A DNA stretch of 64,000 bases. Origin: Paraspadella gotoi (lineage: Eukaryota; Animalia; Chaetognatha). Position numbers and translations under genes: made by a program. Positions 13,027 to 44,091 of this stretch are shown one piece after another. The stretch covers positions 16,233,010 through 16,297,009 of the forward strand of contig CM119269.1 of NCBI GenBank assembly GCA_051294375.1, written 5' to 3'. The notes under the pieces are model-generated. The model did no database searches and was not told where the DNA came from. It was given only the letters and a program-made list of their open reading frames with translations. The stretch's first letter is position 1. Each line of letters starts with the position of its first letter.

Positions 13027-13252
13027 TATGGCAACGGGGAGACATGTGCGATTCCCTGGCGTTCAGGGGTTTGGACGTGCAGTGACCACCCCATGTCACT
13101 GGCGTGTTTATGCCGACACCATCACACTTTAACCAGCGTGACCGTGAGGGAATTGAAGCCGGAACTCAGGGTTGGTGAACGAGCTGTCCAAACCAATGGG
13201 ACGAACTGAGTTTCACCAAACTATACGGGAGGCGAATTTCGGACTCGCCACT
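13027..13252 (-). mobile_element. Structured solo-LTR-like element, family A
   Basis: It is the reverse complement of the 30713 copy over most of its length, with a perfect 4-bp TSD ATAT. Confidence 0.8.
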
Positions 13253-13895
13253 ATATACTAATTTGATGGCCTTAAAGCCGACATCCATTCGCGGCGGTCA
13301 TCGGTGAAGGAGCAAAGCAAATCATTCTTCGGGCTTTTTCTGCTACAATCGTTGCGAGATTGTAAATAAATTTTTTCGATGTCCTACATTGAGCGCTCAT
13401 GAATTTAGAACAGTTGGCTTAGCGAAGAAGTTGCCTATTTTACTTCCCCCTCCTCCCCTTTCCGGAGAGTGCGAGACGAGAGGAGAGAGAGAGAGAGAAG
13501 AGGAAAGAGAGAGAGAGAGAGAGAGTATATTTAAAAGAATCCACATTTAGAAGATGTGATGAAAATCACAGTTAGAATGAATAGAAATGATAGGTTCGCT
13601 GGTAATAAACTTGTAAATGGCGAAATATTGTACAAATGTCGCTGTCTCGTCCTTTTTCTCCATAATTCCCGATTTCAACTTCTTTTTTCTTTCTCCATCT
13701 TCTTCTCTTTTTTTTTAAAGAGAATATTTCTATGTCTTTTCTTACTTTTTCTTTCACTTTGTTTTTCCCTCCTCTCTCACCATTTCACAACTCATATTTC
13801 TCACATCTATTCCAAATTACAACCATTTTTAGTTGTCACTTCACATTCTATCGCTTCAAGTCATTTCTTAGAAATATAAGACCTAAAGTTCCGTC

Positions 13896-15388
13896 TAGGG
13901 TTCCGTTAACCGTTAATTTTTAAGGACTTCGCTTAACCGTTAAAAACTAACGTTTTTAACGGTTTAACCGTTAAAATCGGTTAATTTTATAATTTAACTT
14001 AAATTAAAAATATTAATATTTGAAACTAACTAAAGTATTTAATGGTATTTTCTCCTTAACTCCGGCTACTGAATAGTCTTTATCTTTTATTTCAGATAGA
14101 TGAGGTACACATTATAGTTGATAAATGAGAAAATTGATTTGAAAAAACAGCATTATAATAAATTTTTTTTGCCTCATAGCATAATAAAAATATGAAAAAA
14201 GACAAATGAAAGAAAAAGCACAATGTAATTTTAATTCTGTATATTTTCTTTTCTCTTTCTCTCTTTTCTTTCTTTCTTTCGTTTTTGCTTTTCCTTTTTC
14301 TATTTCTCTTCCTCATTATTTTTATAGTTGTTAGTTTCTTGAAAGCATGTTTTCTGTTGTTAGTCTTTCATAACCATGACCATAAATATAAATATAATTT
14401 AAATATTGTATTAAAGACTTTCTTTTCGTTACGTTTATAGTTAAGTGAAAGCAAAGTTTATTTGTTTACAAACAACAGGTTTTTTATTTTTAAAAAAAGG
14501 ACATGTTTCGACTCTCACGCGCTGATGTAGACTCGGAAAAACTAGAGTCGAAACATGTCCGTTTTTTGGAATAAAAACCGGTTGTTTGTAAACAAATAAA
14601 AACTTTGTTTTCTCTTAATTATGAATATCAATTTATTAATTGAATTTTTAAATGATCGATTGATCAAAAGAGTTATTAATTAATAATATTTTTTTTAAAA
14701 TTTTATTAAAGTAAAGTATATCATCATTGAAGGATAGTTTTAGTTAGCCTTAATGTCTTTTCAAAGATTCATTCCTTCTATTGTTCATTTTTTAAATGTT
14801 TTCTAATATTTTTTTATATTAGTTTTTTTAAAAATTTTTTCATTCATTCGGCTTTATTATATTTACTTCTTTTGTTCATTTTAAAAATTGAAAGAAAAAG
14901 CTAAAAAAGTAAAAGAAGAAAGATTATTTATTTTTTTATTAGCAAAATAGAATATTATTGCATGTAAAAATTTGATTTGCAAAAAATATATGCAGATGCA
15001 TATTATATTTCAAAATATTCTTTGATGTAAATGCTTAATTAGCTGAAAGGAAAAACGAAAACAATTGGGATAAAGTAAGTAAAAAAAATACCGGAAGGGC
15101 AGAAAAAAAATGATAATAGATTAAAATGAAAAAGATTAAAGGGTTGAAAATAACAAAGAAAAATAAGGGGAAAATGTAGAACAGAGAGAGGGGGAAAAAT
15201 ATAGTGAGAAAGGGAGAGGAGAAATAAGGAAAAAAATTTTTTTTCTTAAAAAATCAAAGTTTTAATAACAAAAATTATACTTGAAATTTAACCGAATTTA
15301 ACCGTTAAAATAAATATATTAACGGTTAAGTTAAAATTATTTTTAACCGTTAATAACCGTTAACTGTTTAACGGTTATCGGAACACTA
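13896..15388. mobile_element. Non-autonomous hAT-type DNA transposon (MITE)
   Basis: TIRs are TAGGGTTCCGTTAACCGTTAA and TTAACGGTTATCGGAACACTA, with a perfect 8-bp TSD GTTCCGTC (13888-13895, 15389-15396). Subterminal TTAACCG/CGGTTAA motifs repeat at both ends and the interior is AT-rich and non-coding. Confidence 0.9.
14434..14624 (+). mobile_element. Inverted-repeat remnant containing a second, mutated minimal hammerhead (14519-14563); Penelope-like pLTR fragment
   Basis: The sequence CG-CTGATGTA-GACTC-loop-GAGTC-GAAAC-ATGTC-CGTT is followed by AATAAA. 14434-14515 is an imperfect reverse complement of 14544-14624. Confidence 0.75.
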
Positions 15389-41738: not shown

Positions 41739-43330
41739 AAGGCAAGAGAAGAAAAAACACCAGAGGTAAGAAAACAAGAGAAGAAATTAAATACAATTTC
41801 CCTTATTGAGTTTTCATTCTATTTCTGACAAGAAACGGGAGAGAAAGGCAGTAAAGGCTTGACGGAAAACCACGAAGAAGAAGGTACATGTCTAATTGTC
41901 TATGCTTGTTGGTGATGTTGTTTTAATAGATAAATTATGATTAAAACCACTGGTCATTCTATTCAAAAAAAAGGTATATAGTTTTTACCTAGATGGAGAG
42001 AGCCAACTCGGCTGCAAGTACAAACAGTTCTTAATTGTATATTGTTTTAATTTTATCACTTCCTTCCTCAAATGACCTGATCATTTTAACCCCGTTTCCC
42101 TCCTTCGACTCTAAGCCAATCGAGGCAGTGGGAGAAAACTCTTTTTCCCGGCCAACTCCTCGGAAAACTACTGCCCAAGAAGGAGGAAAAGAAGCCGCCT
42201 TGTCCTCTTTGTCCCATAATCGAAAGCTATCCAACCGCAATCTTGCTGCCCCATGCTGTCGCTCCTTGCCCGCTCCTTGTCCTTCCCCTTGTCCTCCCCA
42301 CCCTCCCCTCTTGTTTCAGCAAAGTGTCCGCCACCTTGTCCTCCGCATGTATCCTCCCGCACAATGTCCTCCGCCATGTCCTGCCCCTTGCCCCACACCA
42401 TGTCCCTACTCCTTGCATAACCCATGTCCTCCTCCTTGTCCTTCTCCTTGTCCCTCCTCCTGTCCGCTCCCCTTGCCCGCCTCCTTTTCCGCGTCCCTTG
42501 CCACCGCCTGTGTCCACCTAAGTGCCCCACGTTGCCCTCCCCAAGCTCCTCCATGTCCAGCGCCACCAGCCAAGCAACGTGGCTATAATCTCTTTCTGAC
42601 GCCTCCTTGTCCCGTCGCCTTGCGACGAATGCGGCAACAACAGCAGTAAGAACGTCACCAACAACAACGCTACCGGCTGCTGCAGCGAGGGAACGAACAA
42701 CGCCAAGTCTGGTCGCTGTATGACGACTCAGTTGGCGAATAACATGACGGGCGGATGCTGCAACGGCCCCGACTGCTCGACGAGGGCAAAACAGATCCAT
42801 GTGGTTGAAGTAGGTGAGGAAATGGACAAGTCCGACCAAGTTCGTCCAAGTCCGACCAAGTTCGACCAGAAGAACACAAACGCCAACTGTAACGACGACG
42901 ACGACGACGTTACTAACAAAACTTCGAACTCGGCGAACTTCTATGAAAAAGCGGAGAGCGGGAAAGAAGAGAGCCGCGGCAGTAGCGCTGAAATCGACGA
43001 AAACGCTGCCGACAATGAGAATGCCCACAACTCGAATGAGGAAAACGAAAGGTAATTTGATTTACTGTTTTGAAATCGAGGATTGATTGATTGATTTTTT
43101 GGGGGTCACAAATCAATAGAATGATTTGTGGCAGTAACCACAGATTTTTGGTTTTCTGATTGATTCAATTTCCCAGGTCAAACTCCTCAAACAATGACGA
43201 CGGTGAAGAGTAAGCTTGGATCACATCCTTTACCTCCGCCTCCACCTAAGACGGCGCTGACTCTACCTCCGACGGCGCCGACTCCGCTTCCGAGGACGCC
43301 GCCTACACCTCGAACGGCGCCGATCCGCAT
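41739..43330 (+). pseudogene. Degenerate tandem paralog of the CPPP-repeat gene (exons 1-4 plus an exon-6-like piece)
   Basis: The exon order matches. Exon 1-like sequence ends at 41765 with ATG replaced by AAG. Exon 2 (41833-41883) ETGEKGSKGLTENHEEE aligns with [25 protein letters not shown] aligns with MDAIGQDS, and there is a frameshifted CPPP array at 42250-42640. [26 protein letters not shown] is shared. The exon near 43177 reads SNSSNNDDG then stops. It could be partly a low-quality consensus rather than a true pseudogene. Confidence 0.7.
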
Positions 43331-43849
43331 CTGACTTTTCCTTCGACGGCGTTACGCTTCCCGCTCTAATTAATTGTCTGATTGATTGTCGATTCGAAGG
43401 GATTTAACAGTATTTAAAAAACGTTTCCGATCTATATTTATATACTCTTTCTTTCAATATTAGTTGTTAGAAATTAATAAAAAAAACATCCCGATGTAAA
43501 TCTCCAGCTCGAGGCCTTTTACATCAAACGCTCTTCACTCTTAAAGTAAAACTTTTAGAAACATCCCCGTTCCACTCGTCAGTAGGTTGCGATGACGGCG
43601 CACATTTGATTCTTGCGAGTTGCTGCCATTCTTAAACATCACTAATTAAAATTAAAAAACGAGTTTTTTTGTTCATCATTGACGGACTTACTTTTTTTCT
43701 TCTCCTGATCTTTATTAACTCGTCTAGAACATATTCCCATTAATATTTTTCTTTTTTTTTATATATATTTTTTTACACGATCATGGTCCAAAGTCAACTT
43801 TTCTAAAATTTTATATTGATTGTATTTTTTTTTCTTTTTTTTTTAATTA

Positions 43850-44091
43850 CATGGCAACAGCCGGGTTGCCTGTGATGCCCATTTGGATGTTGGCTTTGGG
43901 GGTTTCCGACCCTCAGTGACGCCTCCTGTCACTGGCGCGGTTACCATAGGACGGTCTCGCATTGCCAACGCGGAGGGAAGTCGATATGACTGTCACAGTC
44001 ATAACGTCACTGTGGAACGCAACGCCGGGGATGGTCCGTTCCCCCTCTGAAATCGATGGCTGACGTGAGGCGCTGTGAATATATCGCCACA
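43850..44091 (-). mobile_element. Structured solo-LTR-like element, family B
   Basis: It is highly similar to 28132-28387 and has a perfect 4-bp TSD ATTA. Confidence 0.8.

Follow-up and report, generated by a model that had tools for sequence, protein, structure and literature searches.

We analysed a stretch of 64,000 nucleotides from the chaetognath Paraspadella gotoi (NCBI GenBank assembly GCA_051294375.1, contig CM119269.1, positions 16,233,010 to 16,297,009 of the forward strand), hereafter called the window, which contains four short elements of two related families, A and B. The core that the families share is very probably a type-P5 twister ribozyme, located on the strand on which the elements run from TG to TA. 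As the best explanation we favour that the four elements are probably decayed solo long terminal repeats (LTRs) of two related, non-autonomous TRIMs (terminal-repeat retrotransposons in miniature) of the Helenus-like type, which would spread as retrozyme-like RNAs with a twister in the place of the hammerhead. Articles given by their PMC number are cited after those parts of them that were available.

Four LTR-like elements of two families

Family A is represented by c1 (13027..13252, 226 bp) and c3 (30713..30936, 224 bp) and family B by c2 (28132..28387, 256 bp) and c4 (43850..44091, 242 bp). The TG..TA strand is the minus strand for c1, c2 and c4 and the plus strand for c3, which is thus oriented opposite to the other three. 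An initial annotation of the window had proposed these elements, their coordinates and the division into two families, all of which were borne out: c1 and c3 are identical at 170 of 192 aligned positions (88.5%; union alignment of 258 columns) and c2 and c4 at 204 of 223 (91.5%). The copies also differ by insertions and deletions. Compared with c3, c1 is short of a hairpin of 25 nt near 13056 and of a further 7 nt near 13183, and loose contig ends were found at both places. In c4, the A-box described below for c2 and one arm of the 3' hairpin are deleted and an inner hairpin carries an 18-nt insertion.

The GC content is 0.54-0.57 inside the four elements, as compared to 0.16-0.45 in the 100-nt flanks. 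The termini form an imperfect inverted repeat of 6 bp and can be described as a TG..TA variant of the TG..CA-like ends of LTRs. They are less uniform than the TGTGGCG ends originally ascribed to them because c1 starts with AGTGGCG and c4 ends with GTTGCCATG. A 3' tail is absent and both ends are precise. Duplications of the target site (TSDs), each 4 bp long, which had been claimed for all four elements, are exact at c1 (ATAT, 13023..13026 and 13253-13256), c2 (CACT, 28128..28131 and 28388-28391) and c4 (ATTA, 43846..43849 and 44092-44095); at c3, only three of the four letters agree (ATAG, 30709..30712; ATAA, 30937-30940). At the composition of the flanks, the chance of a TSD per site is 0.008 for four matching letters and 0.08 for at least three. 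Both animal Helenus TRIMs (PMC10886601) and plant retrozymes (PMC4918200) show 4-bp TSDs and solo LTRs. Because of the short inverted TG..TA ends, the fixed 4-bp TSD, the inner boxes and the lack of a tail, the elements are best regarded as LTRs inserted by an integrase and not as short interspersed nuclear elements (SINEs). It is highly likely that all four are solo LTRs.

A probable permuted type-P5 twister fold

The twister fold was assessed with a descriptor of 22 features, which was derived from the published layout of twisters (PMC8501958, PMC5408937) and permuted to open at helix P5. Over both strands of the window, six places score at least 19, and the top three are c2 (21 features, 28184..28263), c1 (20 features, 13058..13137) and c4 (20 features, 43889..43969), all on the TG..TA strand, which is the minus strand here. 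The predicted cuts lie between 28237 and 28236, between 13110 and 13109 and between 43943 and 43942, respectively. None of 2000 dinucleotide shuffles reached a score of 20 for any of the copies. Only a remnant of the twister is left on the plus strand of c3 (30834..30883), whose score of 16 is no higher than that of shuffles: the cleavage site, a strand of P2, the pseudoknot T2 and P3 have been lost through a deletion of 33 nt near 30858. The conserved nucleotides of the loops L1 and L4 (the U-A site, G-A and AAGC) are present in permuted order in the other three copies. Thus, the shared core, in which the initial annotation saw a possible new structured RNA motif, belongs to a known class.

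The fold has the U-A site in a UAA loop, P2, the GC of T2, P3, P4 and the T1 pairing in common with published type-P5 twisters (PMC5408937, PMC8501958), and also the L4 pattern U-NNN-AAGC and the L1 pattern G-A-NNN (PMC8501958). It differs from the usual type-P5 twister in that the T1 letters are not the common CCC/GGG, P1 consists of an 8-nt self-complementary word and the score is below the Rfam thresholds.

The ribozyme regions of c1, c2 and c4 can be aligned across the two families, with 47 of 83 columns being invariant. On the named structure, 88.7% of 71 cells are paired, compared with 24-47% in slid controls, and both partners are exchanged in 6 of 24 pairs, of which two belong to T1, two to the P1 word and one each to P2 and P4. 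Pseudoknot T1 is paired in all nine cells, and two of its three pairs have changed on both sides between the families; for the P1 palindrome, this applies to two of four pairs. P2 is paired to 83% and P4 to 75%. One pair of T2 is intact in all three copies and the second is broken or gapped in each of them. The previous suggestion that structure and not sequence is kept therefore agrees with the ribozyme core, as far as three sequences can tell.

Several points weigh against this identification and its functional reading. The spacer ranges of the descriptor were picked after the copies had been inspected. The covariation is drawn from three sequences with a structure set by hand and amounts, in effect, to one contrast between families A and B, so that it says much about identity and little about selection. 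In the two copies of family B, one end of P2 carries a C-A mismatch and one end of P4 an A-C mismatch. The Rfam search, which had been recommended as a check, yielded a partial twister-P1 match on the same strand of c2 with 14 bits and E=4 (gathering score 67.2) and no twister match in c1 and c4. An Rfam scan of the whole window returned no twister and eight weak chance matches, none of which is located on the elements. Moreover, all four window copies carry a lesion in the ribozyme (see below). Intact copies would be likely to self-cleave.

A hammerhead reading of a hairpin in family A, made by eye, was dropped because the core is incomplete and an Rfam match is lacking. Rfam scans of the window and of the copies did not reveal any hammerhead.

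Decay of the window copies and abundance of the families

The lesions of the window copies can be compared with other members of the families by using the public contigs of four sequencing runs, X1 among them, which were aligned to c1 and c2 and evaluated for depth, variants and loose ends. In c1, the positions 13069 (T2) and 13077 (P4) are damaged; in the four runs, 93-96% of the depth at 13069 and 95-99% at 13077 carry the pairing letter. c2 is one base short at the joint between T2 and P3 (near 28228). The longer form accounts for 29-45% of the spanning depth, and many further contigs break off at this joint. In c4, T2 is damaged at the L4 position, for which no variant of at least 3% is listed in the family B depth, and the P1 palindrome is damaged as well. 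Within the ribozyme, the frequent variants of family B are confined to the loop of P3, at 28218 (24%) and 28222 (11%) in X1; the low variation of family B can also reflect a young expansion. Since all four window copies are damaged, none of them can count as a clearly functional ribozyme. They are decayed remnants, and the interest lies in the families.

In run X1, 8671 contigs align to c2 and 1578 to c1, and the contig depth relative to the flank is more than 10,000-fold for family B and about 4,000-fold for family A. Summed contig depth does not equal copy number and these values support "hundreds to thousands" of copies only. The depth drops to single-copy level directly outside the termini of c1 and c2. 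At 28131/28132, 121 and 106 contigs of X1 (at least 227) exit c2 into dissimilar flanks, and 35 contigs exit c1 at 13251; the loose ends at the termini are mostly dissimilar, AT-rich flanks (agreement about 0.43). Families A and B are high-copy families with sharp ends. In X1 and X4, the first letter of the contig covering the right flank of c2 is exactly 28388, and in X9 this contig extends to the left by 16 letters that are dissimilar to the element, a weak hint that c2 is possibly a presence/absence polymorphism. Furthermore, one contig each in X1 and X5 carries two family A units in direct orientation (joint from 13251 to 13065) with unread sequence in between, which is a weak hint at elements with two copies.

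Candidate RNA polymerase III boxes and folding of the whole elements

The consensus of the A- and B-boxes of RNA polymerase III (Pol III) that was used here corresponds to the motifs given in PMC10886601. On the minus strand of c2, tRNA-like boxes were found at 28288..28332, with a perfect A-box (28332-28322) and, 36 nt downstream, a B-box-like word with one mismatch (28296-28288); 3 of 500 shuffles contained a pair as good. The tRNA-like segment, which had been presented as a trait of family A, is therefore not restricted to that family. In c3, a perfect match to the B-box GTTCRANNC is located at 30813..30821 on the plus strand without a good A-box. The position aligned to it in c1 (13150..13158, minus strand) is damaged, and most of the contig depth differs from c1 at 13158 and 13151. 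Neither strand of any copy contains a run of four T. Judged by these motifs, a tRNA-derived Pol III promoter is slightly favoured. This reading is opposed by the best box pairs of c1, c3 and c4, which are no better than those of shuffles, leaving significance in one of four copies, by the lack of a convincing A-box in family A and by ARAGORN, which reported no tRNA genes.

The B-box-like word of family B also constitutes an arm of a helix (c2 28288-28322 and the matching part of c4) that contains a compensatory change between c2 and c4 (28315/28297). This word may be kept for structure instead of for a promoter.

The elements had been called fully structured. This was overstated, as the folding is just modestly better than that of shuffles: 58-66% of the bases are paired in the whole-copy folds, the z-scores against dinucleotide shuffles range from -0.6 to -3.1, and three of the eight strand/copy folds lie beyond -2. 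Concerning the architecture that the families were said to share, a 5' hairpin folds in all four copies. c3 has no CAGTGAC/GTCACTG helix, which corresponds to P3 of the twister, and an unbroken GATGCC/GGCATC helix is confined to c2 and c3. The alleged CCAAA(G/C)CC linker turned out to be non-homologous, as it represents the twister loop L4 in family A and the joint from P4 to P5 in family B. Part of the shared architecture is missing from each copy.

The P1 word and possible paired cleavage

In both families, exactly 8 nt separate T1 from the UAA loop, and the sequences of this word differ. It is self-complementary in c1 (13111..13118, minus strand; self-duplex -9.5 kcal/mol) and c2 (28238..28245, minus strand; self-duplex -11.0 kcal/mol), where it replaces helix P1 and forms no hairpin on its own; the damaged word of c4 yields a duplex of -3.8 kcal/mol. 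Words of 8 nt that are self-complementary are rare in the four elements, with 12 among 920 positions. The word can form 2 bp and a loop as a monomer and up to 8 bp as a dimer. A monomeric P1 would in any case require the two outer pairs, and the evidence that is left for a dimer amounts to about 0.02 according to our own arithmetic.

Minimal hammerheads can cleave as dimers (PMC7761336). However, a twister from which P1 has been deleted stays active (PMC5408937), and 2 bp with a 4-nt loop could serve as a monomeric P1. The chance that two LTR copies pair via the P1 word and cut together appears to be a little less than even. Of the functions that the initial annotation had guessed, catalysis and dimerisation pointed in the right direction, and packaging received no support. 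In its most far-reaching form, the proposal would be that the families are animal LTR retrozymes driven by Pol III, with a permuted twister for the hammerhead and a family-specific P1 palindrome, in which cleavage takes place only when the 5' and 3' LTRs of one transcript pair. We consider this form tentative and rather doubtful. If true, pairing would be a built-in check, by which an exact unit-length RNA is released for circularisation and transcripts of solo LTRs stay uncut, and a twister that naturally depends on dimerisation would represent a new mechanism.

Proposed cycle of the elements

According to the explanation that we favour, an intact element would consist of an internal region between two LTRs. 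Transcription by Pol III would begin at the tRNA-like boxes, which lie in the LTR's 5' half, and, because a terminator in the form of four T is absent from the LTR, would read through from the 5' to the 3' LTR. The twister in each LTR is predicted to cut at the U-A site, about 140-150 nt into the LTR, and the product would be a unit-length RNA with 5'-OH and cyclic-phosphate ends and without terminal redundancy. Since P1 is only an 8-nt self-complementary word, the 5' and 3' LTR copies may pair through it for the cut. By analogy with retrozymes, the unit RNA would then be circularised, and the odds of such a circular intermediate seem somewhat better than even. Thereafter, it would be copied and integrated by a helper, for which the 4-bp duplication suggests a Gypsy-type element. 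Solo LTRs might form by recombination between LTRs or from short cDNAs and subsequently decay, of which the decay itself is observed.

Relation to known systems

Helenus TRIMs (TRIMp3; Kojima 2024, PMC10886601) resemble the elements described here by a short LTR, an inner tRNA-like segment, 4-bp TSDs in animals, frequent solo LTRs and a proposed Gypsy helper. Some of the published Helenus LTRs likewise end with TG..TA (PMC10886601 supplement). The boxes are far more degenerate here than in Helenus, and a twister fold follows them. The likeness concerns the architecture, and the published sequences were compared by searches with short words and by eye. The available main text of PMC10886601 does not mention a ribozyme in Helenus. 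Six words of the L4 type were searched in its supplement, in the part that was available, and gave three matches, all in internal regions.

Two LTRs from gall wasps in the same supplement, Helenus-2_SyJa-LTR and Helenus-2_SyUm-LTR, contain the core words of a hammerhead after the tRNA-like part when inspected by eye, which is unremarked in the available main text. Therefore, a published consensus would already include an animal LTR that combines tRNA-like and ribozyme sequences.

Plant LTR retrozymes (Cervera et al. 2016, PMC4918200) are likewise non-coding LTR elements with a ribozyme in the LTR, 4-bp TSDs, solo LTRs and a Gypsy helper. They differ in having a type III hammerhead, LTRs of about 330-350 bp and demonstrated circles, whereas circles are only predicted for the elements studied here, and the parts available report no promoter. 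The predicted ribozyme of the P. gotoi elements sits in the 3' half of the unit and belongs to the twister class, in contrast to the hammerhead of retrozymes. Metazoan retrozymes were stated to have neither an LTR nor a primer-binding site (PBS) nor a polypurine tract (PPT) (PMC7761336). Twister variants also accompany the retrotransposon Perere-3 of Schistosoma, but this is an autonomous non-LTR element with the ribozyme at its 5' end (PMC8501958). Moreover, type-P1 twisters were found by Rfam to be enriched in Copia and Gypsy elements of plants, which is reported in one sentence without position or mechanism in the available part of PMC11933835.

No literature was found that describes a twister within a TRIM or solo LTR of an animal; this search did not extend to Repbase/Dfam or to the first description of the twister (Roth et al. 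2014) with its supplement, which may list such cases. The main text of one chaetognath genome paper contains none of the words "ribozyme", "twister" and "TRIM". A pattern scan of viral contigs gave no matches. The corresponding scan of metagenomes resulted in 33 loci, which were taken as chance because none of them showed blastn similarity at E<0.01.

If the favoured explanation is true, the twister, for which few biological roles are known, would gain a defined job in an LTR-type element of animals, and the strategy of the LTR retrozymes would extend beyond plants and beyond the hammerhead. As the families are abundant, the genome would also provide a large natural series of mutants.

Alternative explanations

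The solo-LTR reading, which the initial annotation had already put forward together with the assignment to TRIMs, is in line with the TG..TA ends, the 4-bp TSDs, the missing tail and a length like that of LTRs. On the other side, neither an internal region, a PBS, a PPT nor a helper element was seen, and no two-LTR copy is present within the window. The main rival, which we consider unlikely, is an ordinary Helenus-type TRIM that moves via a linear RNA with terminal redundancy, in which no circle is formed and the twister only trims an RNA end, for instance as a substitute for the Pol III terminator, or is slow to cut. Termini, TSDs and boxes would fit such an element equally well. Furthermore, the LTRs have no T4 terminator, in contrast to many of the listed LTRs of Helenus, in which a T-run can be seen by eye behind the B-box (PMC10886601 supplement). 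However, identical LTRs imply that the 5' copy also cuts, by which the redundancy needed for strand transfer would be lost, as inferred from the LTR mechanism. It is improbable that the unit of 224-256 bp is the whole element, i.e. a monomeric ribozyme retroelement that lacks an internal region and is integrated from a small self-cut RNA. Indeed, all four window copies are single units, the loose ends at the termini lead mostly into dissimilar AT-rich flanks, and the retrozyme model permits cDNAs of solo-LTR size (PMC4918200). Yet a single unit offers one cut site and no PBS, and a contig with two family A copies exists.

Both the sharp ends with 4-bp TSDs and the imperfect inverted repeat of 6 bp would also suit a miniature inverted-repeat transposable element (MITE) that carries the ribozyme as a passenger and belongs to a DDE superfamily with 4-bp duplications. 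Ginger is such a superfamily. This origin is very improbable because two divergent families keep the same strand-specific fold with compensatory changes, for which a DNA intermediate would not select, and the inverted ends are no longer than the att sites of LTRs. Even harder to accept is a ribozyme-bearing SINE of tRNA origin that depends on a non-LTR or Penelope-type element for its mobility. Its length and Pol III-like boxes would be appropriate and twisters are known from non-LTR elements (PMC8501958), but the boxes start about 55 nt inside the element, a tail is missing, the ends are precise and a 4-bp TSD accompanies all four copies. The strongest form of the initial annotation, a structured RNA motif of a new class that serves packaging or dimerisation, has the least to recommend it: the absence of an Rfam match at threshold and the hairpins kept outside the ribozyme, including the one compensatory pair of c2 and c4 (28315/28297), speak for it, but the core fits 20-21 of the 22 features of a known twister class. 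Thus, solo LTRs of twister-bearing, retrozyme-like TRIMs are still the explanation that we prefer.

Other features of the window

Two paralogous Pro/Cys-rich frames flank c4 (42250-43055 and 45500-46400), in which 12-bp repeats of the PPPC type are followed by a Cys/Asn-rich part; a Pfam search with one of the two frames gave no match. At 8031-9703, a foldback of 1673 bp has the ends TTAGAG..CTCTAA, imperfect inverted arms of about 260-270 nt with 87% identity and inner arms with 72% identity, and probably represents a DNA transposon of the non-autonomous kind. Two copies of a palindromic MITE-like element, opposite in orientation, lie at 38763-39442 and 47539-48052 and have terminal inverted repeats of about 10-13 bp. 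An AT-rich element of 192 bp with inverted ends of 46 nt is located at 14434-14625, and an inner part of it is found again at 57994-58051. The regions 35033-36722 and 36997-38677 form a tandem duplication of about 1.95 kb, which is 83-92% identical and broken by GA microsatellites. Finally, the minus strand of 59340-62884 contains exons of a CYP4-like cytochrome P450, whose relatives come mostly from arthropods and other invertebrates (55-82% identity); the best match of a CYP4-like exon, with 82%, is to an unnamed animal protein.

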